A stretch of DNA of 64,000 nt from an uncultured Desulfobacteraceae bacterium (GCA_913060875.1 CAJXSL010000021.1:15017-79016), one strand, 5' to 3'; shown: positions 537 to 26,460, counted from the stretch's first letter. The notes: generated by a model from the sequence alone, not told the origin. Program-made: numbers and translations.

Positions 537-2189
537 ATGGAGCCTCTGGTGCTAAAAGACATCAACCTAAAAACCGAAAGCCTTATCAAAGGCACAATTT
601 ACAGCGGCCTGCTCATTGCCGTTTACTTTACCTCCCACCAGGTAATGTTCAAGTGGTGGCAGCGTGAGGACTACAACTACTGCTACCTGATCCCCTTTGT
701 GATCCTCTATCTCATCTGGGAAAAAAAGGATGCGTTGATAGCAACCCCGGCCCGACCGGGCTGGATGGGCCTTCTGCCCCTTGTTTTCGGGCTGGCTCTT
801 TTCTGGCTGGGGGAACTAGGGGGGGAATTCTACACCATGTACATTTCCTCCTGGTTCGTGCTGTTAGGTTTGCTCTGGCTGCATCTGGGATGGCGCAAAC
901 TGAGGGTCATCCTGTTTCCCATCGCTTTCATCCTGACTATGTTCCCGCCGCCGAACCTGATCTATTTCAACCTGTCCCTGAGGCTGAAACTCATTTCCTC
1001 ATGGTTGGGGGTATGGGTGCTCCAGTCCCTGGGCAAAACCGCCTATCGGGAGGGCAATATCATCGACCTGGGCTTCACCCAACTCCAGGTGGTGGACGCC
1101 TGCAACGGGTTGCGCTACCTCTTTCCCCTGATCGTACTGGCCATTTTAGTGGCCTATTTTGCCAGGGCGGCCTGGTGGAAAAAAGTGCTGGTGGTTCTTT
1201 CATCGATTCCCATTTCGATTTTCGTCAACGGCCTTCGCATCGCCTCGGTCGGATTGCTTTACCCGATCTGGGGCCCCCAGGTGGCCGAGGGTTTTTTCCA
1301 CGATTTCTCGGGCTGGGTTATCTTTATGATCTCTTTGGGTATTCTCCTGGGCGAACTGTGGATACTGAATTGGATATTCAAAGAGAAACAGGAGACATGG
1401 GCCAGGAGTCAGAAGTCAGAAGGTAAAAACAAGGAAAATGAGCGCATAGCTCAAAGCTCAAAGCAACTGCCTGCGGCAGAGCGCCAAGCTCAAAGCGTCA
1501 AGCTCAAAGCAACTTCAGAAAAGCAGAAAAAAGAAACCATAAAGATTTTTCAGCCTCAGTTTATTGTGGCGATTATGCTTTTGGGTGTGACGGCGGTTAT
1601 TGGCCAGACGGTTAATTTTCGCGAGGAAGTGCCCATCGCGAAATCTTTCGGTGACTTTCCCACACGTATCGGGGCCTGGGAGGGAAAACTCCAGACAATG
1701 GATCAGAAGTTCATCGATGGCCTTAATTTTTCAGACTACATTATCGTGAACTATCGCAATGATTCCAACCAGCCCGTCAATTTTTACACGGCTTACTATG
1801 AAAGCCAGCGCAAGGGCGAATCCATCCATTCCCCATCCAGTTGTCTGCCGGGCAGTGGATGGGAGTTTAACCAGGCGGGAAAAGTCCATATATCCTTATC
1901 TCAGTCCCGTCGACAATCGCTGCCGGTCAACAGAGCCGTCATGACCAATGTCGGCCAGCGCCAGCTGTCCTATTTCTGGTTTCCCATGCGGGGTCGGGTG
2001 GCCACCAACATGTGGGAAATGAAATTGTTCAACTTCTGGGATGCCCTCACCCAGCAACGCACGGACGGCGCTTTGGTGCGCCTGATCACCCCCATCGGCA
2101 AGAACGAAAAAGTCGATGATGCCGATGCCCGCCTCCAGGCCTTCACCCGCGAACTGTTTCCGGTACTCGATCAATTTCTCCCTCAGTGA
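537..2189 (+). CDS. exosortase (EpsH-type) fused to an EpsI-family domain
   Basis: 550-aa ORF. The N-terminal multi-pass membrane domain carries exosortase catalytic-type motifs (VDACNGLRYLFPL, FVNGLRIASV, FHDFSGW). After a low-complexity linker and one TM helix, the C-terminal domain has the EpsI-like motif SIHSPSSCLPGSGWE. Confidence 0.85.
   Translation: MEPLVLKDINLKTESLIKGTIYSGLLIAVYFTSHQVMFKWWQREDYNYCYLIPFVILYLIWEKKDALIATPARPGWMGLLPLVFGLALFWLGELGGEFYTMYISSWFVLLGLLWLHLGWRKLRVILFPIAFILTMFPPPNLIYFNLSLRLKLISSWLGVWVLQSLGKTAYREGNIIDLGFTQLQVVDACNGLRYLFPLIVLAILVAYFARAAWWKKVLVVLSSIPISIFVNGLRIASVGLLYPIWGPQVAEGFFHDFSGWVIFMISLGILLGELWILNWIFKEKQETWARSQKSEGKNKENERIAQSSKQLPAAERQAQSVKLKATSEKQKKETIKIFQPQFIVAIMLLGVTAVIGQTVNFREEVPIAKSFGDFPTRIGAWEGKLQTMDQKFIDGLNFSDYIIVNYRNDSNQPVNFYTAYYESQRKGESIHSPSSCLPGSGWEFNQAGKVHISLSQSRRQSLPVNRAVMTNVGQRQLSYFWFPMRGRVATNMWEMKLFNFWDALTQQRTDGALVRLITPIGKNEKVDDADARLQAFTRELFPVLDQFLPQ
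1448..1510 (+). repeat. CAAAGCT-family repeat segment embedded in frame in the exosortase-EpsI linker
   Basis: The segment agctcaaagctcaaagcaactgcctgcggcagagcgccaagctcaaagcgtcaagctcaaagc has the same units and the same CTGCC-GCG-GCAG mini-palindrome as the intergenic arrays. It is followed by aaaagcagaaaa, as at 14819-14830. It translates as ..AQSSKQLPAAERQAQSVKLKA.. Confidence 0.8.
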
Positions 2190-2858
2190 TTCCCGCAGGG
2201 AATCGGTTAATTGGGGAATTGGGTAACTGGGGGATTCGTTGATTGGTCAATTGGTTATTGCCGATTTCAGTAATTGAGAAACTAGGGGGCTGAGAAACTC
2301 CCTTAACTGCAGAAACTGGGGAAATAGGTAATTGGTCAACTGGGAGATTCTTTGAATCGTTTTAAGAAGAAAACCGGTTCAACAAAGGATTTTAGAGATC
2401 TTGAAGCTTATCAGCGTGCTGTTATTGTTCGTCAGGATATATGGGCGTTTTGTAAAAATCTTCCAACCGATGAGAAGTACCGATTGGTCGATCAGATGGT
2501 TAGGGCGTCTCGGTCGGCTACAGCTTGTATTGCCGAGGGGTATGGCCGATACCATTATTAGGAAACAATTCAATTTTGCAGACAAGCACGCGGTTCTCTT
2601 TACGAACTCCTGGACCATATCGAAACAGCCCTGGAATGTAAATCTATCAAGGAAGAACAGGCTGAAGTGTCTTTGGATAAAGTCAGCACGACCATCAAAA
2701 TACTTAACGGCTATATCGGCTACCTGCGGAAGCGAAAAGAAGACAACTCCTGAAATATCGTGCTATCGGTACTATTGATCCCATTGACTAACGATAAATT
2801 GGACTGTTTAGCCGATTACCCAATCGACGATTCGACTATTTACCCAATCAACTAATCC
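2190..2858 (+). repeat. IVS-like inverted-array element, octamer-arm subfamily (arms about 2207-2345 and about 2780-2855 around ORF 2352-2753)
   Basis: The left arm has about 8-nt periodicity: taattggg gaattggg taactggg .. tgattggt caattggt .. gtaattgg tcaactgg. The right arm carries the reverse-complement units: cccattga .. cccaatcg .. cccaatca. The small palindrome attccc-gca-gggaat at 2189-2203 abuts the xrt stop codon. Confidence 0.65.
2352..2753 (+). pseudogene. four-helix-bundle protein (23S rRNA-IVS protein family) interrupted by an in-frame TAG at 2559-2561
   Basis: 69 codons (..RLVDQMVRASRSATACIAEGYGRYHY) run into TAG. The same frame continues as ETIQFCRQARGSLYELLDHIETALECK..GYIGYLRKRKEDNS to TGA at 2751-2753. 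Both halves together give a full-length family member. Confidence 0.75.
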
Positions 2859-4496
2859 ATGATCTATCTCTCCACATTACTCTTATCTCTGTTCATCACC
2901 ATCTCGCTGGTGCCGCCGCTCAAGTCCCTGGCGATTCGTTTCCAGGCGGTGGACATACCCAACGAGCGCAAGGTGCATACCCGGCCGATCCCCAAGATCG
3001 GTGGGCTGGCCATGGCCTGCGGGGCCCTGATCCCAATTTTGCTGTGGGCAGCCATGAACGGGTTTGGCCATGCCCTGCTGGCCGGCTCGGCGGTGATCGT
3101 GATATTCGGCTTTCTGGATGATCTTTGGGACCTGCCCTACAAGGCCAAATTCCTGGCCCAACTGGCCGCGGCCCTGATCGTTGTCCAGTTCGGTCAATTG
3201 GAATTATGCTGCCTGGGCAACCTGGCCCCGGAAGGATTTCTGCTGCCCACTGCCCTGGCCCTCCCCCTGACCGTTTTCGTCATCGTGGGGGTGACCAACG
3301 CCATCAATCTGTCCGATGGCCTGGACGGCCTGGCCGGCGGCATCACCCTGATGACCTTTATCTGCATCGGCTACCTGGCCTACCAGGGCGGGCACTTTTT
3401 CACCCTGACCGTCTCTGTGGCTGCCATCGGCGCCATTTTCGGCTTCCTGCGCTTCAATACCTTCCCGGCCGTCATTTTCATGGGGGATACCGGCAGCCAG
3501 CTTCTGGGTTTCCTGGCCATCTGCCTTTCCATCCACATCACCCAGGGCAACCAGCCCCTGAGTCCCCTGCTCCCCCTGATCATCCTGGGATTCCCGATCC
3601 TGGACACCCTTACCGTTATGACCGAACGGATCATGAAAGGGGCCTCCCCGTTCAAGCCGGACAAGAACCATTTCCATCACAAATTGATGCGCCTGGGCCT
3701 CTTCCACACCGAGGCGGTTTTCACCATTTATCTCCTCCAGTCGTTCCTAATTCTGTCGGCCATTGTTTTCCGGTTCTATTCAGAATGGTTTCTACTCTTT
3801 TTCTACGCAATTTTTTCCAGTGTAATTATCAGTACATTTACCATCCTCGATCATCGTCATTGCCAGCTCCCGCGAACTGATTTTATCGACAAGATGATCA
3901 AGGGACGCCTCAAGGTCCTCAAGGAACGCAACATCATCATCAAGGTGAGCTTCCGCTGCGTGGAGTTCGGCATGCCCCTGCTGCTGGCCTCCACCTGCCT
4001 GCTGAGCCGCAACACTCCGGGTTATTTTGCGGTGGTAGCAGGAGGACTCAGCCTTTTGCTGATCGCAATCTTTTTCCTTCGCCGATCCCTGTCCGCCACG
4101 GCCATCCGCATCGGCCTCTACCTGGTCATCCCCTTTCTGGTCTACATCTCCGAAGCCGGGGCGGCCGACTTGCCCCTCAATATCCACCGTTCCTATTCCA
4201 TAGCCTTCGGCGTGATGGTGATGTTCGTGATCCTGACCCTCAAGTTCACCCGCCGCCGCAAGGGGTTCAAGACCACCCCCATGGATTTCCTGGTGCTCTT
4301 CATCGCCCTGGTGGTTCCCAATATCACCGGCACCCAGATCGCCTCCCTCAACATGGGCATGATCGCCGCCAAGATCATCGTCCTGCTCTTCGGCTATGAG
4401 GTGCTGATCGGCGAGTTGCGGGGGGAACTCAAGCGGCAGGTTATTTTCGCTGCTGCCGCCATGGCGATCATTCCGATAAAATTTTTTATTGGATAA
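2859..4496 (+). CDS. MraY/WecA-family (GT4) undecaprenyl-phosphate sugar-1-phosphate transferase with an extended C-terminal membrane domain
   Basis: 545-aa polytopic protein. It carries the motifs NERKVHTRPIPKIGG, VTNAINLSDGLDGLAGG and FMGDTGSQLLGF, typical of the WecA/MraY family. Confidence 0.85.
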   Translation: MIYLSTLLLSLFITISLVPPLKSLAIRFQAVDIPNERKVHTRPIPKIGGLAMACGALIPILLWAAMNGFGHALLAGSAVIVIFGFLDDLWDLPYKAKFLAQLAAALIVVQFGQLELCCLGNLAPEGFLLPTALALPLTVFVIVGVTNAINLSDGLDGLAGGITLMTFICIGYLAYQGGHFFTLTVSVAAIGAIFGFLRFNTFPAVIFMGDTGSQLLGFLAICLSIHITQGNQPLSPLLPLIILGFPILDTLTVMTERIMKGASPFKPDKNHFHHKLMRLGLFHTEAVFTIYLLQSFLILSAIVFRFYSEWFLLFFYAIFSSVIISTFTILDHRHCQLPRTDFIDKMIKGRLKVLKERNIIIKVSFRCVEFGMPLLLASTCLLSRNTPGYFAVVAGGLSLLLIAIFFLRRSLSATAIRIGLYLVIPFLVYISEAGAADLPLNIHRSYSIAFGVMVMFVILTLKFTRRRKGFKTTPMDFLVLFIALVVPNITGTQIASLNMGMIAAKIIVLLFGYEVLIGELRGELKRQVIFAAAAMAIIPIKFFIG

Positions 4497-4860
4497 AACA
4501 TATTCACCACAGAGACACGGTTGGCAAATAAGCCCCAAGCTCAAAGCTCAAAGCTCAAAGCTCAAAGCTCAAAGCTCAAAGCTCAAAGCTCAAAGCTCAA
4601 AGCTCAAAGCTCAAAGAAAAAAAACCGTGCGTAGGAACAGACGTCAAGCAAAAAATTTGATTTATAGAGGAAAAAATAGGAAGTGATGCCTTCGGCAGAG
4701 CTCGAAGCTCAAAGTTGAACCCGCCACCCTGAAAATTCTTTATTCTTTTTTTGTAGTTCCTTGGCGCTTTGAGCTCAGCCTTTAAGCTTGTTTTACCAGC
4801 TTTTCCCCTTTGAGCTTGACCCTTTGTGTTGTTTTTCCCAGGAGCGTTTCGCTCCTTTTC
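4497..4860 (+). repeat. IVS-like CAAAGCT-arm element, ORF-less copy
   Basis: Components: leader tattcaccacagagaca; (CAAAGCT)n at 4536-4616 (about 11-12 units); conserved module at 4617-4680 (ccgtgcgtaggaacagacgtcaagcaaaaaatttgatttatagagg); complementary arm at 4757-4826 (gcgctttgagctcagcctttaagcttg..cctttgagcttgaccctttg); GGAGCG-ttt-CGCTCC hairpin at 4842-4856. Confidence 0.8.
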
Positions 4861-4942: not shown

Positions 4943-7348
4943 ATGCGACGCCGGATACAACTTTTGCTCTGCACCGCTCTCATCCCGCTCATGGTGCTTT
5001 CCTGCAGCGGGCCCGAAGAAAAAAAAGCCAAATTCTTCCAAAAAGGCCAGACCCTTTTTGAGCAGGGCGACTTCACCAAGGCCCGCCTGGAATTCAAGAA
5101 TGCGCTGCAGATCGACCCCGAATATGTCGAAGCCTACTTCATGCTGGGCCGCCTGGAAATGAAAGAAAAAAACTTCAAAAAGGCCTTCGGGTATTTCAGC
5201 AAGACCGTGGAACTCGCCCCGGACTATGACAAAGGACACCTGGAGCTTGGCAAGCTGTTTCTGGCGGCCCGCGCCCTGGACCGGGCCCGTGAGAAGGCCG
5301 ACCTGCTTTTGGCCAAAGATCCGGTCAACAAAGACTACCGCATCCTCCACGCTGCCCTGCTGGTGGCCGAACAAAAATCGGACGCGGCCCAGGAAGCCCT
5401 ACAGGCCCTGCTGGCGGACGGGGTGACCCAACCGGATATCTACTACATGCTGGCCACCAATTATTCCCAAATGAAGCAAGACGCACAGGCCGAGGCCATC
5501 CTGAAGGATGGGATTCAGCAAAACCCGGACTCGACCGCCCTGCACCTTATCCTGGCCCGCTTTTACGCCGGCACCAAACAGCCGGAAAAAGCCATTGGCC
5601 ATGTGGAGCAAGTGATCGCCCTGGAGCCGGACAAAAGCGCCTATAAGCTGACCCTGGCAGGCCTCCAGCGCGATGCCGGCCAGCCTGTGGCCATGGAAAA
5701 AACCCTTCAGGCGCTGCTCCAGGCCGACCCGTCCGATGAGGAAGTCCGTCTGCAGGTGGCCCGCTTCTGGCTCCAGTCCCGCAATCCTGAAAAATGTGAA
5801 CAGGTCCTCCAGGAAGGCCTGGCCACCAACCCGGATAGCTACGACATGCGGCTTTTCCTGGCGGAAGTCTACACCAACACCCAGCGCACCGACCAGGCGG
5901 TCACTGTCCTTCGGGAAGCCCTTGCCATCGGCAAGGATCCGGCCAGCCCGGACAACCTGCGCACGAAAAACAGCCTGGCCAAGGTCTATCTCAAGCGCCA
6001 GGAACCGGAAACCGCCGAACGCCTGGTGGACGAGGTCCTCGCGGAGAGCCCCAAGAACATCGATGCCCAGATGATGAAAGGCAATTTGCGCCTCATGGCC
6101 GGTGACGGTCTGGCAGCCATCACCGCCTTCCGCACGGTCACGGCGGAGAAGCCCGACATGATTCCGGCCCATCTCAGCCTTAGCCAGGCCCACCTGGTGA
6201 ACAAAGAGCCGGCCCTGGCCCTGGACACCCTGCGCCAGGCCGCCACCACCCACCCGAATGCCAAGGAGGTGCGCCTGGCCCTGGCCCGTCTGCATGCCGG
6301 ACGGCAGGAATACGATGCCGCCGAAGCAGAACTCTACAAAATCCTGGCCCAGGACCCTCAGGATCAGAGGGTGCGGGCCAGTCTGGGCGACCTCCAGGCA
6401 GCCCAGGGCAAAAACGATGCGGCCGAGCAGACTTTTATGACCATCCGCGTCCAGGCCCCCAGGATTCCGGCCGGCTACCTGAAACTGGCACAGCTCTACT
6501 GGCGCACGGGCGACAAGGCCAAGGCCGTGGCCACCCTGGAAGACGGCTATTATAAGAACCCCATGTCGGTGCCGCTCTTCACCAACTTGGTACGCATGCA
6601 TCTGGCGGCCCAGAAACAGGACAAAGCCATTGCGCTGTGCCAGGACGCCATCGAGCGGGCACCGGAAAGCGCCTTTCCCTACAATGCCCTGGGCAGCGTG
6701 TTGACCGTCACTAAGGATTATGACGGCGCCCTCGCGGCCTTCAAGCAGGCCATTGAACGCCAGCCCCTGTGGCAGCCTCCCCACAACGGCCTGGCCCGGG
6801 TTTACCTCCTCCAGGGGAAGACCGACGAGGCCATTGCCCGACTGGAAGAAGCTACGGCCACCAACCCAAAAAACCAGGCCGCTTTCCTGACCCTGGCCAA
6901 TCTCTACGAACAGCGAGGGGAAAGCACCAAGGCCATGGAAATCTACAACCAGGCCCTGGAAGCCAACCCCCAAATGTGGGCGGCGGCCAACAACCTGGCC
7001 TTTCTGCTTTCCGAAACCGGCAGCGCTTCGGCCGCGGACCTGGACCGTGCCTCGCTGATGGCCATGAAAGCCTATACGATGCAACCGGAAAATCCAGTGG
7101 TGCTGGATACCATGGGCTGGATTCATTATCGCCGGGGCAACCTCCCCCAGGCCCTGAGCTTTATCGAGCAGGCCGTTGAAAAGAACGACGACAGCCCCAT
7201 CCTCAACTACCACCTGGCGGTGGTACTGCATGAAAGCGGCCGCCCCCTGGAAGCCGAATCCGCCCTCAAGAAAGCCCTGGCCGGCGATGAGGATTTCCAT
7301 GGCCGTGACGCAGCAGATAAACTCATGCAGGAACTTCAGGGGAGTTGA
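4943..7348 (+). CDS. PEP-CTERM-system TPR-repeat lipoprotein (PrsT-like)
   Basis: 801 aa. Lipoprotein signal peptide (..LIPLMVLSCSG). TPR repeats run throughout. RBS gggagg lies upstream. The gene sits inside an exosortase locus. Confidence 0.8.
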   Translation: MRRRIQLLLCTALIPLMVLSCSGPEEKKAKFFQKGQTLFEQGDFTKARLEFKNALQIDPEYVEAYFMLGRLEMKEKNFKKAFGYFSKTVELAPDYDKGHLELGKLFLAARALDRAREKADLLLAKDPVNKDYRILHAALLVAEQKSDAAQEALQALLADGVTQPDIYYMLATNYSQMKQDAQAEAILKDGIQQNPDSTALHLILARFYAGTKQPEKAIGHVEQVIALEPDKSAYKLTLAGLQRDAGQPVAMEKTLQALLQADPSDEEVRLQVARFWLQSRNPEKCEQVLQEGLATNPDSYDMRLFLAEVYTNTQRTDQAVTVLREALAIGKDPASPDNLRTKNSLAKVYLKRQEPETAERLVDEVLAESPKNIDAQMMKGNLRLMAGDGLAAITAFRTVTAEKPDMIPAHLSLSQAHLVNKEPALALDTLRQAATTHPNAKEVRLALARLHAGRQEYDAAEAELYKILAQDPQDQRVRASLGDLQAAQGKNDAAEQTFMTIRVQAPRIPAGYLKLAQLYWRTGDKAKAVATLEDGYYKNPMSVPLFTNLVRMHLAAQKQDKAIALCQDAIERAPESAFPYNALGSVLTVTKDYDGALAAFKQAIERQPLWQPPHNGLARVYLLQGKTDEAIARLEEATATNPKNQAAFLTLANLYEQRGESTKAMEIYNQALEANPQMWAAANNLAFLLSETGSASAADLDRASLMAMKAYTMQPENPVVLDTMGWIHYRRGNLPQALSFIEQAVEKNDDSPILNYHLAVVLHESGRPLEAESALKKALAGDEDFHGRDAADKLMQELQGS

Positions 7349-7354
7349 AAAAAA

Positions 7355-8045
7355 ACGCATATTCACCACAGAGACAGGAGCGCTTTGCGCTCCGTTGAAA
7401 GTTGGAGACAACGGCAAAGCTCAAAGCTCAAAGCTCAAAGCTCAAAGCTCAAAGCTCAAAGCTCAAAGCTCAAAGCTCAAACAAAAAACAGTGCGTAGCA
7501 ACAAACGTCAAGTAAAAATTTTACTTATGAGAGGTAAAAAATAGATTCACGGATCAATAACAAAATGTTTGGATATGAAGAGTTGAAAGTCTGGGATCGA
7601 GCGGTGTCATTTGCCGTAATGGTTATCGAGGCATCGGAGAGCATTGACACCGGCCGGCAGCATTATCGCCTGATAGAACAAATCGAAGCTTCTTCGACCA
7701 GTATTGCGATGAACATAGCCGAAGGTAAAGGTCGATTTTCCAAAAAAGAATTCAAACATTTTTGCTACATTGCCAGGGGCAGTCTGTACGAAACCGCAAC
7801 TCTGCTGGAAATTTTCCACCGTAAAGCCTGGATACCCACGAATACCTATAATGAACTGAAATCCGAAGCCATAGAGATCGCCGCCATGATCAAAGGGCTT
7901 ATCAATTCTCTTCAAACGGAATAAGCTTGTTTGTTTTCCTTTGCGCTTTCATCTTTGAGCTTCTTTTATCGCAGTTCCTTTCAGCTTTGAGCTTTCAGCT
8001 TCGAGCTCTGCTGGAGGCAGCACTTTCAGCTTGACCCTTTTTTTC
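7355..8045 (+). repeat. IVS-like CAAAGCT-arm element, full-length copy with an intact ORF
   Basis: Components: leader tattcaccacagagaca plus GGAGCG-cttt-GCGCTCC hairpin; (CAAAGCT)n at 7415-7480; conserved module at 7482-7540; ORF at 7565-7924; complementary degenerate array at 7937-8040 (ctttgagctt..cctttcagctttgagctttcagcttcgagc..). Confidence 0.8.
7565..7924 (+). CDS. four-helix-bundle protein (23S rRNA intervening-sequence protein family)
   Basis: 119-aa intact ORF MFGYEELKVWDRAVSF..IEQIEASSTSIAMNIAEGKGRFSKKEFKHFCYIARGSLYET..IKGLINSLQTE. This is the family signature. It has close paralogs at 13529-13888 and 26015-26381. Confidence 0.85.
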   Translation: MFGYEELKVWDRAVSFAVMVIEASESIDTGRQHYRLIEQIEASSTSIAMNIAEGKGRFSKKEFKHFCYIARGSLYETATLLEIFHRKAWIPTNTYNELKSEAIEIAAMIKGLINSLQTE

Positions 8046-8130
8046 GATAGTTCCTTGAAACCCAATATAATTAGTGATAATTATTGATAATAAGACCATT
8101 TCTCCAACGGAATCATACCAGAAACTGACA

Positions 8131-8870: not shown

Positions 8871-10142
8871 TTGCGCAATCCCGGATTTGCAATAGCGCCC
8901 CGGTGCGCCGGGGGGCCATCAATCATTGTGGCCCTGCTGCCGACAGTGCTGTTCTTGCTTTTACAGCCCGTGGACGGATGGAGCGACCCGACCCAACTCA
9001 AGCTGACCATGGGGGTGCGACAGGAATACAATGACAACATTTTCTTCGACGAAGACGATGCCGAATCCGACTTCATCACCACCGGTATTTTCGGGGTGGA
9101 CCTGGGCTATGTGGTGGAGCGTCTCCAGGCCCACGCCATCGGACGCTGGGAAGGCTACACCTACCAGGACAACAGCGACCTGGACGACGTTGACCAGGAC
9201 TACCGCCTGACCCTGGACTACCGCTTCACCCCCCGCCTCAAAGGGGGGCTTTCAGGCGCCTACATTCGCGACTTCCGACGGGACCGGGAGGTGGAGACCA
9301 CCGGCGTGGTTTTTGAAAACGAAGAGCGCACCCGCTACCAACTGGATACCGCATGGGAATACCTGCTGACCGAAATTACGGCCCTTAACCTGACGGCGAC
9401 GTACTGGAAAGACGACTACGAGCGGGATCCCACCTTCCAGGAGGAGTTCCGCGACCTGGAAGCCTATGGCGGCAATATCGGATTGTCGCAGGCCCTGAGG
9501 GTATTCAACCGGCCTACCTATGGCCGGCTGAACCTGGGCTACTACAACTACCGCTACGAGTTCAGCGAAACCGACTACTATTACCTGAACCTGGGCTTCA
9601 GTACGCAGCTCAGCGAAACCTACACCCTGCTCCTGGATGCGGGCCCGCGCTATACGGAAAACGAATATCCGGTGACGCGCATCGTGGCGGGCAGCATCCC
9701 GGGCACGTTCCGGATTGTGGCTGAGGAGGAGACCAGCGAGGACTGGGGGGGCAGCGGCCGCCTGTCCTTGGCCTATGCCGGCGAAAAAACCAACTGGGAG
9801 GCGGCCCTGAGCCGGGAAATCACGGCCTCCAGCGGCCAGAACCAGACCGTGGAGCGCACCGAAGCGAGTTTCGACTGGCGCCACTGGTTCACCGGGGAGT
9901 GGCGGGGCATGTTGACCCTGCGTTACTTCAAGAGCGAAAACGATCGGGACGATCCCCTGCTGAGCGATATCGACGAAGACACTTTTGTGGTTCATCCGCG
10001 CATGCTCTACCGGTTCAACCCGGACTGGACCCTCCGGGGCAGCTACCGCTACACCTGGGAAAAGGATAACGAAGACGATACGACCAGAGAACGCAACCAG
10101 GTGATGGTGGAAATGGTCTACAACTGGCCCGTGTGGGAGTAG
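8871..10142 (+). CDS. PEP-CTERM-system-associated outer-membrane beta-barrel candidate
   Basis: 423 aa. Signal-like N-terminus. Alternating aromatic/polar, Y/W/D/R-rich composition typical of beta-barrels. It lies between the export and chain-length genes. The TTG start is uncertain. Confidence 0.6.
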   Translation: MRNPGFAIAPRCAGGPSIIVALLPTVLFLLLQPVDGWSDPTQLKLTMGVRQEYNDNIFFDEDDAESDFITTGIFGVDLGYVVERLQAHAIGRWEGYTYQDNSDLDDVDQDYRLTLDYRFTPRLKGGLSGAYIRDFRRDREVETTGVVFENEERTRYQLDTAWEYLLTEITALNLTATYWKDDYERDPTFQEEFRDLEAYGGNIGLSQALRVFNRPTYGRLNLGYYNYRYEFSETDYYYLNLGFSTQLSETYTLLLDAGPRYTENEYPVTRIVAGSIPGTFRIVAEEETSEDWGGSGRLSLAYAGEKTNWEAALSREITASSGQNQTVERTEASFDWRHWFTGEWRGMLTLRYFKSENDRDDPLLSDIDEDTFVVHPRMLYRFNPDWTLRGSYRYTWEKDNEDDTTRERNQVMVEMVYNWPVWE

Positions 10143-10530
10143 CGCCTTGCGGCAGTGCTCGAAGCGGCTGCCTGCGGCAAAGCTCAAAGCTCAAAGCTCA
10201 AAGCTCAAAGCTCAAAGCTCAAAGCTCAAAGAAAAAAACCGTGCGTAGGAACAAACGTCAATATAAAAATTGATTTTGAGGGGGGAAATAAGCCTTAAAG
10301 CTGAAAGAAAATGCGGTTTGTTCTTTTTACGTCAAGATATGGAAGGAACTTATTCTACCAATCGCAGTGCCCCAGCCCTGCCAAAGGCAGCCGATTGACG
10401 CTTCATGCTCTGCCGTAGCCCGCGTGTTTTTAGCTTGGCTTTTTTGCGATTGCTTTGAGCTTTCAGCTTGACGCTTTGAACTCTGCCGCAGGCAGCCTCT
10501 TTCAGCTTTGAGCTTGGCGCTTTTCCGAAG
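10143..10530 (+). repeat. IVS-like CAAAGCT-arm element, ORF-less copy
   Basis: It begins directly after the stop codon. Components: CTGCC-tgc-GGCA hairpins; (CAAAGCT)n at 10178-10231; conserved module at 10232-10290; shared remnant acttattctaccaatcgca; complementary arm at 10451-10523. Confidence 0.8.
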
Positions 10531-10610
10531 GCCCTAACGAACATAACGATCTAAACTATCGTAACGACCAAAACTAACATAGCTATCCAAACTATTTATC
10601 GGGAATCTCC

Positions 10611-12215
10611 ATGGAACAGGAAACCATCAATCTGAGCGATTTTACCGACATCATCCGCCGGCGGCGCTGGAGTTTCATCCTCCCGGCCGGTGCCATCTTC
10701 CTCCTGGCGGTCCTGGTGGCCCTGGCCCTGTCGCCGGTATACAAGTCCACGGCCACCATCCTGATCGAGGAGCAGGAAATCCCGTCGGATTTCGTCATCA
10801 CCACGGTCACCAGCTACGTGGAGCAGCGCCTCCAGAGCATCAACCAGCGCATCATGAGCTCCACCCGCCTGCTGGAGATCATCGACCGCTTCAACCTCTA
10901 TGCCGACGAGCGCGACAAGCGCACCACCGAAGAAATCGTCGAAAAGATGCGGGAAGACGTGCTGCTGGAACCCATCAGCACCGAAGTCATGGACAAGCGC
11001 ACGGGGCGGGCCACCATGGCCACCATCGCCTTTTCCCTGTCCTACGAAGCCAAGGAGACCCCGGCCAAAGTCCAGAAGGTGGCCTCCCAGTTGACCTCCC
11101 TCTTCCTGGAGGAAAACCTCAAGGTGCGCGAGCGCCAGACCTCGGAGACCTCCCAGTTCCTGCGGGATGAGAGTGCGCGCGTCAAAGCCCAGATGGACCA
11201 GATCGAGGGCGAAATCGCAGTTTTCAAACAGGCCCACATCAACGAACTGCCCGAGATGCTGCAGCTCAACATGCAGGAACTGAGCAATATCGATCGCAAC
11301 ATGGAGCGTTTGCAGGAGAACCTGCGCACCCTCAATCAGCGGGAAGGCTACCTCCAGGCTGAACTTTCCACCACCTCCCCTAAATGGCACAAAAGCTGGG
11401 TTGCTGAAAAAGACGAGGACGTCAAACGCCTGGAGTTCCTTGAAGTCCAGTTGATTTCCCTGAAGACCCGCTATTCCGACGAATACCCGGACGTAGTCAA
11501 AACCGTCCAAGAAATCGACACCATCAAGCGACGTCTGGACGAAGCTGGGGTGGACTACTCCCGCCAAAACGGCAAGGACCACGATACACCGGAAAACCCG
11601 GCCTATATCAGTCTGTCGGCACAACTGAGCGGGGTGCAGTCGGAAATCGAGACCATCAACCGCCAGATCGCCAGTTTCGAGGGCACCGCCCTCCGATACA
11701 AGCAGCGCATTGCCGCCACCCCGGCCGTGGAGGAAACCTACAACGCCCTGCTCTCGCGCCAGGCCAACACCCGCCTGAAATACAACGACCTGCTCCAGAA
11801 AACCATGGAAGCCGAAGTGGCCCAGGGCCTGGAAAAAGACCAGAAGGGCGAGCGCTTCACCCTCATCGACCCGGCCCGCCTGCCGGAAAAACCCTTCAAG
11901 CCCAACCGGCTGGCCATCGTGCTGATCGGTATTGTTTTGGGCATGGGCGCAGGGGTGGGCTGGGCCGCCCTGCGGGAGTTCACGGATGATGCGGTCCACA
12001 ATGCGGAGGCCCTTACCCGCAGCACCGGCTTCCCGGTACTCTCGGGCATTCCGGCCATCATAACCCCGTCCGAAACCGAACACCGGCAGCGCATGCAAAA
12101 AGTCAAAATCATCGCTGCCGTGGCCGCCGTACCGTTGGCCATCGTCATCTTCCATTTTTTTATCATGGACCTGGATATCTTCTGGGCCAAGCTGATGCGA
12201 CGGTTGGGGTTATAG
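10611..12215 (+). CDS. polysaccharide chain-length determinant protein (Wzz/EpsF-like, PEP-CTERM locus type)
   Basis: 534 aa. It has an N-terminal TM helix, a Wzz motif region (..SPVYKSTATILIEEQ..), a long coiled-coil periplasmic domain and a C-terminal TM helix. Confidence 0.85.
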   Translation: MEQETINLSDFTDIIRRRRWSFILPAGAIFLLAVLVALALSPVYKSTATILIEEQEIPSDFVITTVTSYVEQRLQSINQRIMSSTRLLEIIDRFNLYADERDKRTTEEIVEKMREDVLLEPISTEVMDKRTGRATMATIAFSLSYEAKETPAKVQKVASQLTSLFLEENLKVRERQTSETSQFLRDESARVKAQMDQIEGEIAVFKQAHINELPEMLQLNMQELSNIDRNMERLQENLRTLNQREGYLQAELSTTSPKWHKSWVAEKDEDVKRLEFLEVQLISLKTRYSDEYPDVVKTVQEIDTIKRRLDEAGVDYSRQNGKDHDTPENPAYISLSAQLSGVQSEIETINRQIASFEGTALRYKQRIAATPAVEETYNALLSRQANTRLKYNDLLQKTMEAEVAQGLEKDQKGERFTLIDPARLPEKPFKPNRLAIVLIGIVLGMGAGVGWAALREFTDDAVHNAEALTRSTGFPVLSGIPAIITPSETEHRQRMQKVKIIAAVAAVPLAIVIFHFFIMDLDIFWAKLMRRLGL

Positions 12216-12242
12216 ATTTGCCTGCGGCAAATCTATAACCCC
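12206..12242 (+). terminator. perfect 17-bp-stem hairpin overlapping the wzz-like stop codon (no T-tract)
   Basis: ggggttatagatttgcc-tgc-ggcaaatctataacccc. TAG 12213-12215 lies inside the 5' stem. It may act as a terminator or processing site, but there is no U-run. Confidence 0.4.
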
Positions 12243-12480
12243 AAGCTGAAAGGGACTGCGAAAAGATCGAAATATAAAATGGGAAAATAAGAAAAAGCTC
12301 AAAGCGGCAACCTGTAGGTTTTATCTATTTTCCTAATTCACTATTTTCCAATTTCTTGTTTTTGCCCTGTCTTTAAGCTTGGCGCTGCTTTTAACGCAGT
12401 TCCTTTGAGCTTTCAGCTTTGAGCTTCGAGCCCTGCCGCAGGCAGCCCTTTGAGCTTTCAGCTTGACGCTTTGAGCTTCA
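12243..12480 (+). repeat. CAAAGCT-family element, mainly the complementary (GAGCTTT) arm
   Basis: 12373-12478 reads cttggcgctgcttttaacgcagttcctttgagctttcagctttgagcttcgagccctgccgcaggcagccctttgagctttcagcttgacgctttgagc. Short sense units (aagctgaaagg, aaagctcaaagcgg) lie at 12243-12325. Confidence 0.75.
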
Positions 12481-13339: not shown

Positions 13340-14030
13340 GGGCCTGAGCTCAAAGCTCAAAGCTCAAAGCTCAAAGCTCAAAGCTCAAAGAAAACCGTGC
13401 GTAGGAACAGACGTCAAGCAAAAAATTTGATTTATAGAGGGAAATAAGCCTGAAGCTGAAAGCTGAAAGCTGAAAGGAAAACCTAAAACAAAGGGCAAAA
13501 TCAAATAAATTCGAAAATCAATAATCAAGCGTTTGGATATGAAGATCTTAAAGTTTGGGATCGAGCGGTGTCATTTGCCGTAATGGTTATCGACGCAACA
13601 GAATGTATTGACACCAGCCGGCAGCATTATCGTCTGATCGAGCAAATCGAAGCCTCCTCGACAAGTGTTGCCATGAACATTGCAGAAGGCAAAGGGCGTT
13701 TCTCCCTCAAGGAATTCAAACATTTTTGCTACATTTCCAGGGGCAGCCTGTACGAGACCATGACGCTACTGGAAATATTTCATCGTAAAGACTGGATATC
13801 TTCGGCGAAATATGACGAGTTAAAAGCGGAAGCCATTGAGATCGCCGCAATGATCAAAGGGCTTATCAATTCTCTTCGAACGGAATGAGCTTGTTTGTTT
13901 TCCTTCGCGCTTTACGATTTTAGGAAGTTCCTTTGAGCTTTCAGCTTGACGCTTTGAGCTTGTTTTTTCTCCCTTTGAGCTTTCAGCTTGGCGCTTCTTT
14001 TCATCGCTGTTCCTTTGAGCTTATTTCCCG
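13340..14030 (+). repeat. IVS-like CAAAGCT-arm element, full-length copy
   Basis: Components: (CAAAGCT)n at 13346-13390; conserved module at 13391-13445; (GAAAGCT)3 at 13449-13477; ORF; complementary arrays at 13929-14023. Confidence 0.8.
13568..13888 (+). CDS. four-helix-bundle protein paralog; ancestral ATG replaced (GCG at 13529-13531)
   Basis: Homology to the 7565 copy starts at 13532 (FGYEDLKVWDRAV..), but the codon aligned to its ATG is GCG. The first usable in-frame starts are GTG 13568 and ATG 13583. It is possibly a decaying copy. Confidence 0.6.
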   Translation: MSFAVMVIDATECIDTSRQHYRLIEQIEASSTSVAMNIAEGKGRFSLKEFKHFCYISRGSLYETMTLLEIFHRKDWISSAKYDELKAEAIEIAAMIKGLINSLRTE

Positions 14031-14755: not shown

Positions 14756-14818
14756 ACTGCCTTCGGCAGAGCTCAAAGCGGCTGCCTTTGGCAGAGCTCA
14801 AAGCTGAAAGCTCAAAGG
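14756..14818 (+). repeat. CAAAGCT-family half element (sense units only)
   Basis: The segment is ctgccttcggcagagctcaaagcggctgcctttggcagagctcaaagctgaaagctcaaagg. It is followed by aaaagcagaaaagagaaattaggaaaataag. Confidence 0.7.
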
Positions 14819-14925
14819 AAAAGCAGAAAAGAGAAATTAGGAAAATAAGTGTGCGACATGTAAATGGTTTGGTTTTCCATCCCAGTTACCTATTTCGCTA
14901 TTTTCTATTTGACTGAATTTCGACC

Positions 14926-17149: not shown

Positions 17150-17290
17150 CAGGGTTTTGGGCCTTGAGCCTGTTGGAGGTCTTGGGCCTTCGGCCGTTGG
17201 AGGTTTTGGGCCTTCGGCCGTTTGAGGTATATGGTTTGAGGATTTTTTGCCTTCACCCTCCAACCTCAGACCTCCAACAGCTTGCGCAGC
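17150..17290 (+). repeat. short hairpin element with TTGGAGGT/TTGGGCC units and complementary CCTCCAAC units
   Basis: Left units: tgttggaggtcttgggccttcggccgttggaggttttgggccttcggccgtttgaggt. Complementary units: caccctccaacctcagacctccaac. Confidence 0.7.
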
Positions 17291-17329
17291 AAACCTCTTT
17301 GAGCTTTTCCCTATTTCCATATTTTCTGA

Positions 17330-17436
17330 TTTCTCCTTTCTGCTTTTCCTTTGAGCTTTCAGCTTTGAGCTCTGCCGCAGGCAGCCGCTTTGAGCTTTCA
17401 GCTTTCAGCTTCGAGCTCTGCCGCAGGCAAGAGCGC
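17330..17436 (+). repeat. CAAAGCT-family element, complementary (GAGCTTT) arm only
   Basis: The segment is ctgcttttcctttgagctttcagctttgagctctgccgcaggcagccgctttgagctttcagctttcagcttcgagctctgccgcaggca. Confidence 0.75.
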
Positions 17437-22301: not shown

Positions 22302-22379
<78 letters not shown>

Positions 22380-24690: not shown

Positions 24691-24767
24691 CGGGAAGTGG
24701 CTCAGCCTGGTAGAGCACAGCGTTCGGGACGCTGGGGTCGCTGGTTCAAATCCAGTCTTCCCGACCA
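24691..24767 (+). tRNA. tRNA-Pro (anticodon CGG)
   Basis: CGGGAAGTGGCTCAGCCTGGTAGAGCACAGCGTTCGGGACGCTGGGGTCGCTGGTTCAAATCCAGTCTTCCCGACCA. The anticodon arm is CAGCG-TTCGGGA-CGCTG. Confidence 0.9.
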
Positions 24768-25834: not shown

Positions 25835-26460
25835 GCAGCGCCAAGCTCAAAGCGTCAAGCTGAAAGGACTGCCTTTGGCAGAGCTCAAAGCGGCAAGCTC
25901 AAAGCTGAAAGCCCAAAGCTCAAAGGGACGGCAATAACAAGAAGCGTGAAGCCCAAAGCTGAAAGCTCAAAGGAACTTCCTAAAATCGTAAAGCGCGAAG
26001 GAAAACAAACAAGCTCATTCCGTTCGAAGAGAATTGATAAGCCCTTTGATCATGGCGGCGATCTCTATGGCTTCGGATTTCAGTTCCGAATAGGTATTCG
26101 TGGGTATCCAGGCTTTACGATGAAAAATTTCCAGCAGAGTGGTGGTTTCGTATAGGCTGCCCCTGGCAATGCAGCAAAAATGTTTGAATTCTTTTCTGGA
26201 AAATCGACCTTTGCCTTCGGCTATGTTCATCGCAACACTTGTCGAGGAGGCTTCGATTTGCTCGATCAAACGATAATGCTGCCGGCCCGGTGTCAATGCT
26301 CTCCGATGCGTCGATAACCATGACGGCAAATGAGACCGCACGATCCCATACTTTCAACTCTTCATATCCAAACTGTTGCATAGCTCTACCCTAGTCGCTG
26401 ATTGCTCCAAGGTCTTAATGGTTTTCCTTTCAGCTTTCAGCTTTGAGCTTTGAGGCTTCA
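25835..26460 (-). repeat. IVS-like CAAAGCT-arm element, inverted orientation, carrying a frameshifted ORF
   Basis: 25835-26010 is the mirror of the right arm of the 13340-14030 copy (..ggaacttcctaaaatcgtaaagcgcgaaggaaaacaaacaagc). 26425-26455 is the mirror of the left arm (cctttcagctttcagctttgagctttgagg). Confidence 0.8.
26015..26381 (-). pseudogene. four-helix-bundle protein paralog with a +1 frameshift
   Basis: MQQFGYEELKVWDRAVSFAVMVIDASESIDTG (frame A) and RQHYRLIEQIEASSTSVAMNIAEGKGRF..INSLRTE (frame B) are separated by one extra base. The plus-strand ccc at 26286-26288 corresponds to cc at the aligned position of the intact 7565 copy. Confidence 0.8.

Follow-up and report, generated by a model that had tools for sequence, protein, structure and literature searches.

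Heptamer-repeat DNA is translated as part of the linker of the exosortase-EpsI fusion protein XrtD in an uncultured Desulfobacteraceae bacterium

We analysed a stretch of 64,000 nucleotides from an uncultured Desulfobacteraceae bacterium (GCA_913060875.1 CAJXSL010000021.1:15017-79016, the whole of which is called the window here), in which the gene of XrtD, a VPLPA-CTERM-type exosortase D with a C-terminal EpsI domain, lies in an exopolysaccharide (EPS) locus. The linker joining the two domains of this enzyme contains translated DNA of the AGCTCAA repeat family that is otherwise found between the genes of the window. Together with the XrtD genes of relatives, this quite probably points to an ancestrally fused enzyme whose linker is largely heptamer-repeat DNA, with an old sense arm as a disordered spacer, at a site that recurrently receives lineage-specific tracts.

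The open reading frame (ORF) of XrtD runs without interruption over 550 amino acids (Table 1), in agreement with an earlier note made on this DNA. The whole protein matches TIGR04152 with 595.8 bits, for a curated cutoff of 400, and so belongs to XrtD; the model, of 486 positions, already covers the exosortase and EpsI domains. The exosortase domain presents the conserved Cys, Arg and His, here C189, R234 and H255, which are unvaried across a 34-sequence alignment and which we take to be the catalytic residues. In the same polypeptide, residues 344-548 match the C-terminal EpsI domain, by TIGR02914 (E = 1.1e-47) as well as by PF11984 (E = 7.6e-59). The window protein therefore resembles other XrtD proteins in its two domains, in the conserved Cys/Arg/His and in the transmembrane (TM) helix ahead of EpsI, but it exceeds the 486-position model by about 64 residues, the additional ones being located in the linker and repeat-encoded. 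A PDB sequence search with XrtD gave no solved relative. No convincing VPLPA-type C-terminus was found among the ORFs of the 64-kb window, which was the scope of this search.

Nearly every intergenic region of the EPS locus holds an AGCTCAA-family element, which typically consists of a sense arm, in many cases a perfect (AGCTCAA)n array of 6-11 units, and a degenerate antisense arm downstream. In the XrtD linker, a 98-bp sense arm makes up about 60% of the length. BLAST of the linker against the window gave 74-79% identity over 87-103 nt (E 1e-14 to 5e-12), with matches at 12385-12470 (-), 17323-17410 (-) and 10141-10240 (+), and in a multiple alignment the copies have a common order of parts, that is heptamers, hairpin, heptamers and a tail GAAAAGCAGAAA(A/G)GAGAAAT. 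The mean identity of the linker copy to the intergenic copies is 71.5%, and that of the intergenic copies among themselves is 70.9%. The 10-mer AGCTCAAAGC occurs 68 times in the window, compared to 0.12 copies expected from shuffles; the linker accounts for four of them (1448, 1455, 1487 and 1501), and all others are intergenic, between 4.5 and 26.5 kb. In the same way, the mini-hairpin motif CTGCCTKYGGCAG is present in 10 copies against 0.01 expected, one of them at 1467-1479. The linker segment thus presents the AGCTCAA-type units, the CTGCCNNNGGCAG mini-hairpin, the A-rich tail, their order and the within-family identity that characterise the family. It departs from the usual family placement (intergenic, just past a stop codon, with an antisense arm downstream) in lying inside a coding sequence (CDS): no antisense partner was found within about 3 kb, nor any before 4766, and no other CDS in the window carries an AGCTCAA-family segment. 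The CAGRAGT tract at 1403-1422, upstream of this segment, is present in the window in a single copy.

The earlier note had read the linker of CDS 537-2189 as encoded by a sense half-element, and the parts, their order, the hairpin, the tail and the identity are indeed those of the intergenic copies; the peptide that it quoted is found at residues 283-334 and the DNA at 1448-1526. The extent that it proposed, 1383-1545, does enclose the repeat homology, but the homologous part is narrower, 1441-1538. These features also bear on whether de novo slippage within a low-complexity linker gave rise to the tract locally, its resemblance to the intergenic family being due to convergence, which we regard as highly unlikely. 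Among long simple sequence repeats (SSRs), heptamers are reported to be the most frequent class in many bacteria, perhaps by polymerase slippage (PMC4679880), and many relatives present simple arrays whose units are not seen in their flanks; however, the window segment shares a multi-part architecture (units, 13-nt hairpin motif, tail) with at least seven intergenic copies, at family-typical identity, and for this segment local slippage is disfavoured.

Table 1 Coordinates of the XrtD gene, of its parts and of repeat elements in the window (TRF, Tandem Repeats Finder)
Feature	Position	Strand	Basis or remark
XrtD CDS (VPLPA-CTERM-type exosortase D, 550 aa)	537..2189	+	intact ORF; TIGR04152
Exosortase (EpsH) domain, residues 25-276	609..1364	+	PF09721, E = 1.8e-70
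Inter-domain linker, residues 283-339 (~57), K/E/Q/S-rich	1383..1553	+	between the two Pfam domains
Short CAGRAGT heptamer tract x2.9, encodes RSQKSEG	1403..1422	+	TRF (unit given as CAGAAGT)
In-frame solo sense arm ('half-element') of AGCTCAA repeat family	1441..1538	+	BLAST, alignment to intergenic copies
(AGCTCAA) x2.4	1448..1464	+	TRF
Mini-hairpin motif CTGCCTGCGGCAG	1467..1479	+	motif count
(AGCGCCAAGCTCAA) x2.2, 14-nt unit	1480..1510	+	TRF
A-rich tail AACTTCAGAAAAGCAGAAAAAAGAAACC	1511..1538	+	aligns to solo-copy tails at 14811-14836 and, as reverse complement, 17323-17345
TM helix anchoring EpsI domain, residues 340-358	1554..1610	+	hydropathy peak 337-359; AlphaFold helix 340-358
EpsI domain (PF11984 / TIGR02914), residues 344-547	1566..2177	+	domain matches
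Different-unit element (GGGAATTG-like arms) around four-helix-bundle pseudogene 2352-2750	2198..2860	+	immediately 3' of XrtD
Intergenic sense arm (AAGCTCA) x11.4	4537..4616	+	antisense partner at about 4755-4837
Full element	7415..8040	+	sense arm 7415-7481, PF05635 gene 7565-7924, antisense arm 7936-8040
ORF-less element	10141..10532	+	sense arm 10141-10240, antisense arm 10450-10532
Family copy, best match to linker (79% over 87 nt)	12371..12478	-	BLAST, alignment
Second full element	13347..14015	+	four-helix-bundle gene at 13532-13885
Solo sense arm, two hairpins + tail	14757..14836	+	starts 4 nt past upstream stop codon
Solo sense arm	17323..17429	-	directly past stop codon of acyltransferase gene

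We then consider the fusion itself, which, according to the earlier note, an element inserted at the epsH/epsI junction might have created. PF09721 and PF11984 are both present in 120 of the 120 homologues listed, and each of the 162 XrtD loci examined has a single uninterrupted ORF. The closest relative with DNA (locus L081, protein P0002, 77% identity) is fused, with a linker shorter by 24 amino acids (72 nt) that retains only a vestige of the repeat, GCTGAAGGCTGAAAAGG and the tail, while P0005, P0006, P0009 and P0010 (67-73% identity) are fused with no trace of the repeat in the linker. The hairpin motif, AGCTNAA units and the tail are found at the orthologous site in L082 (63%), L163, L164 and L165, where XrtD has 63-70% identity to the window protein. 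Orthology of the segment across relatives with 63-77% identity indicates that it is old and not a fresh insertion. Because the TIGR04152 model spans both domains, and all relatives are fused, including those without the repeat, the comparison likewise indicates that the repeat is not the creator of the fusion, which is ancestral and predates the sense arm. The earlier note had suggested an alignment with orthologs and had itself counted fused relatives without the repeat against its proposal; all the orthologs are fused, with the repeat vestigial or absent in those of 67-77% identity (P0002, P0005, P0006, P0009 and P0010), and the idea that an insertion created the fusion is not borne out. What is supported is that repeat DNA is translated in frame as a part of the linker, which amounts to its exonisation or domestication.

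The same comparison makes it decidedly improbable that the fusion came about by read-through of a repeat element located between epsH and epsI as separate genes. Such an event would be easy to picture, since the sense arms are open in all frames and always begin 0-67 nt past the stop codon of the same-strand upstream gene (stop/sense-arm positions 4496/4537, 7348/7415, 10142/10178, 13324/13347, 14753/14757, 15960/15986 and 25822/25837, and 17439/17430 on the - strand), so that the loss of one stop would give read-through. Moreover, the linker starts where unfused exosortases end, as the 261-position XrtA model covers residues 25-275 of the window XrtD, and heptamer tracts recur in the XrtD linkers of several orders. 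Nevertheless, the fusion is a defining character of the entire XrtD family and is also present in XrtW, the relatives listed are all fused with or without repeat DNA, and the repeat families are lineage-specific with a quick turnover, which implies that the present element was not the founding event. This conclusion concerns the present element; it does not extend to a read-through of some intergenic sense arm at the origin of the XrtD family as a whole. That annotation or assembly produced the single ORF artificially, hiding two genes with an intergenic repeat between them, is barely credible: accidental read-through of the ORF is conceivable for a sense arm open in every frame, but the frame is kept into a TM helix and an EpsI domain that are conserved, the window protein and P0002 differ in length by 24 amino acids or 72 nt, a protein identical to the window XrtD (P0001) is present in a public collection, and all relatives are fused.

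The recurrence of tracts at this site was examined by a period-7 test, the 7-nt autocorrelation in 63-nt windows with a threshold of 0.55. Set 1 consists of 83 genes, from the window, the 80 nearest species-representative genomes and 2 metagenome contigs, and a second set of 79 metagenome-derived linkers brings the total to 162 loci with 158 unique genes. The in-house period-7 tract caller is too permissive and key arrays were rechecked by TRF; for the comparison of linkers with flanks, 9-mers were swamped by chance matches and were replaced by 12-mers of the dominant unit. A period-7 tract (at least 0.55) is present in 21 of the 83 set-1 linkers, no remaining part of the set-1 XrtD CDSs exceeds 0.50, and only 2 of 385 other long ORFs of these loci reach 0.55 (Fisher p = 3e-15 versus XrtD). 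One of these two, in L078, is a spurious ORF over an intergenic array. The signal is specific for the period, as among the 158 unique genes period 7 is found in 24, periods 6, 8 and 9 in 1, 5 and 2, and the others from 4 to 12 in none. Since a 7-nt unit shifts the codon phase each time, the tract points to a process at the DNA level and not to protein selection. The linkers with a tract have a median length of 159 nt versus 120 nt for those without (p = 0.009).

The linker units vary by lineage and include AGCTCAA, GGGAAAC, GGTTCAA, GGGCAGA, GGTCGGA (and its reverse complement), CGCGAAT/CGAAAAT, AATTCAA and CGAAATT, with AGGAGTC in Geobacter. In seven loci (the window, L023, L005, L052, L053, L164 and L165) the linker unit is that of the flanking intergenic arrays, and intergenic heptamer clusters are present in 10 of the 21 loci with a linker tract compared to 5 of the 62 without (p = 2e-4).

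The strongest parallel to the window is L023, with about 15 GGGAAAC units in the linker and long arrays of the same unit upstream and downstream of the gene and along the locus (5252-5510, 6441-6573, 7231-7366, 9261-9341 and 10169-10278). L164 presents a perfect (AAGCTCA) x4.4 in the linker at 10848-10878 and a perfect (AGCTCGA) x10.4 at 11551-11623, starting 3 nt past the XrtD stop codon, and the linkers of L003 and L032 hold perfect tracts of 4-5 units. A CAGRAGT tract, translated as xRSQxSEG in the same frame and located just after the last exosortase helix, is common to the XrtD linkers of the window and of the Geobacter and Syntrophus loci L052, L053, L099 and L032. The sole genuine heptamer tract within a CDS other than XrtD, among the 385 ORFs, is (CATCGTC) x4 near 2065 in L021, in the inter-domain linker of an ADH_zinc_N/GFO_IDH-type fusion (915-3104). 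The metagenome scan gave no relative closer than 66%.

Perfect tracts also bear on the suggestion, which we consider unlikely from the sequences at hand, that the tract may be functional as nucleic acid, either as a slippage-prone contingency site, at which one 7-nt unit would shift the frame and uncouple or truncate the EpsI module, or, in the RNA, as the target of a regulator that binds heptamers or is of the RNase III type. Heptanucleotide tracts reportedly drive phase variation in other systems. Seven is not a multiple of three, the tracts of some relatives are perfect (4.4 units in L164, about 15 in L023, 4-5 in L003 and L032), the linker segment is no less conserved than the domains, and the intergenic arms of the AGCTCAA family fold into long stems. 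Yet the window tract is short and interrupted, its 2.4 perfect units not amounting to the long perfect tract of an SSR contingency locus; an out-of-frame XrtD is found in 0 of 162 assemblies, all loci being in frame; and the linker arm has neither an antisense partner within about 3 kb nor an Rfam match. Similarly doubtful is a reading in which the linker would be a relic intergenic spacer still exchanged with heptamer/four-helix-bundle elements resembling intervening sequences ('IVS-like'), its tracts acting as a frameshift-prone or RNA-level switch that couples and uncouples exosortase and EpsI. If this were true, exopolysaccharide and PEP-CTERM protein sorting would be phase-variable in sulfate- and metal-reducing bacteria.

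The orientation of the segment was also considered. An AGCTCAA array has no stop in any of the three frames, and (AGCTCAA)n encodes SSKLKAQ, while its reverse complement presents TGA in all three. As the reverse complement is closed in every frame, only the sense arm can persist in a CDS, and it would do so if net length changes are multiples of three. AGCTCAA, GGTTCAA, AATTCAA, CCTTTCA and AGGAGTC are closed in antisense, and (AGCTGAA)n is closed in sense. Antisense closure as a rule for all linker units is refuted by GGGAAAC, GGTCGGA and others, which are not closed. The orientation filter is therefore not general, several other units being open both ways; the L058 linker holds the reverse complement of the L071 unit.

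In the AlphaFold model of XrtD (34 sequences), the protein is helical up to residue 280, and residues 286-335, between confident helices, have a predicted local distance difference test (pLDDT) score below 50. The linker contains 14 K+R versus 8 D+E, and one hydrophobic helix follows it. The EpsI domain is generally regarded as periplasmic. Since EpsI is taken as periplasmic and a single TM helix precedes it, the linker is probably a disordered, positively charged loop on the cytoplasmic side, and its repeat-encoded segment would most likely act as a passive spacer.

These observations are consistent with an ancestral XrtD fusion whose linker is a permissive site, at which a genome-wide heptamer process would repeatedly deposit or homogenise tracts. 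Such a process could combine slippage with exchange between linker and intergenic arrays, by recombination or gene conversion, and would account for linker units that track each genome's own intergenic units. The loop connects the final helix of the exosortase domain with the TM helix anchoring the periplasmic EpsI domain, and would tolerate the tract by being disordered and cytoplasmic. Several points weigh against this account. Only 3 of the 79 linkers of the metagenome set reach the threshold, which makes the trait lineage-restricted, and in most tract-bearing loci the comparison with the 6-kb flanks on either side did not return the unit. The L082 linker carries the element and yet the 10 kb upstream are without such arrays, so that continuing exchange with nearby arrays is not required. 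Conservation of the linker segment is no lower than that of the enzymatic domains (between window and L082 DNA, 76% over 83 ungapped nt of the 3' part of the linker, 67% in the exosortase domain and 71% in the EpsI domain), which is unexpected for a purely neutral spacer; a peptide- or RNA-level function, or concerted evolution, could each lie behind it. Finally, the topology is predicted from charge and the single TM helix ahead of EpsI, and the 550-amino-acid product from the sequence.

The EPS locus around XrtD encodes a GT4-family sugar transferase, a TPR protein, Poly_export, a beta-barrel protein, Wzz/GNVR and an AAA_31 protein. Three of the elements in the window enclose a four-helix-bundle gene (PF05635 / TIGR02436), at 7565-7924, 13532-13885 and 26372-26018 (-). 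These three paralogs are 86-96% identical in amino acids, each within an inverted-arm AGCTCAA element, and the third (26018-26372) is frameshifted. When 7340-8050 is folded, the minimum free energy structure has the ORF enclosed by the two paired arms (z = -3.15). A conserved leader ATATTCACCACAGAGACA stands ahead of two sense arms, at about 4500 and 7360. At 17153-17228, beside a solo repeat arm, there is a 24-nt tandem repeat, GGTTTTGGGCCTTCGGCCGTTGGA x3.1, with a GGCCTTCGGCC hairpin in each unit. An Rfam scan of 1-28000 (E <= 0.1) gave two tRNAs, at 22305-22379 (-) and 24691-24764 (+), and chance matches on the arrays, with no family that fits the repeat; sub-threshold matches of the AGCTCAA arrays to the Rfam miRNA family MIR7125 are due to chance.

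The arrangement at 2198-2860, immediately downstream of XrtD, has an ortholog in L082. Its four-helix-bundle gene (2352-2750) presents one in-frame TAG at 2559-2561, and the L082 ortholog (11832-12240) one TAA at a different codon; the two genes are otherwise conserved, without frameshifts, and the stops could be due to parallel decay or to stop-codon read-through. The PF05635 genes of relatives (L163 3775-4128, L164 16230-16589 (-), L165 11067-11528, L082 11832-12032) occupy varying intergenic sites in otherwise syntenic XrtD EPS loci, which is consistent with mobile elements.

Among known systems, the Rickettsia palindromic elements (RPEs) are inserted in frame into protein-coding genes (PMC10969869). 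Like the AGCTCAA family, they are both intergenic and translated in frame where an extra peptide is tolerated (PMC10969869), and the linker copy is likewise a member of a dispersed family, in frame at a permissive site (pLDDT < 50) of a functional gene. RPEs differ in being complete palindromic units of about 150 bp, of the miniature inverted-repeat transposable element type, in many unrelated genes, whereas XrtD holds one arm, a half-element of 7-nt tandem units, in one linker of one enzyme family, across species and with lineage-varying units; only 1 real case was found among the 385 neighbouring ORFs of relatives. TAACTGA heptamers of Beggiatoaceae and Cyanobacteria are mostly intergenic and occasionally lie in ORFs, at peripheral or permissive positions, where their orientation is limited by stop codons (PMC4679880). 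The heptanucleotide families of Geobacter metallireducens occur within genes as well as between them, and their 'class 3' unit MTYCTGA is the reverse complement of the CAGRAGT at 1403-1422 (PMC2700814). These repeats share with the window family their genome-specific 7-nt tandem arrays, mostly intergenic and sometimes in ORFs, but the reports give scattered ORF cases and not one repeatedly hit linker, and contain no inverted arms around PF05635 genes. Intervening sequences (IVSs) of 23S rRNA have a PF05635 ORF between inverted repeats and are processed by RNase III. The full elements of the window resemble them in having a PF05635 gene between complementary arms that fold into a long stem, and differ in lying between EPS genes, not in rRNA, and in having heptamer arrays as arms; the linker copy, with one arm and no ORF, is not IVS-like. 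We found no report of an XrtD linker built from heptamer repeats, and a text search for XrtD/VPLPA-CTERM gave no paper on the enzyme.

The XrtD linker is thus a clear case, in bacteria, of simple-repeat or selfish DNA translated within a conserved membrane enzyme, and what it adds is a recurrent, family-specific hotspot, lineage-specific heptamer arrays being taken up repeatedly by one linker. The view of how exosortase-EpsI fusions arose is unchanged. For annotators it is a caution that ORFs may run across such arrays. The finding accounts for the variable length and the low complexity of XrtD linkers, and it provides a natural marker for the spread and homogenisation of the poorly understood heptamer/four-helix-bundle elements of Desulfobacterota.

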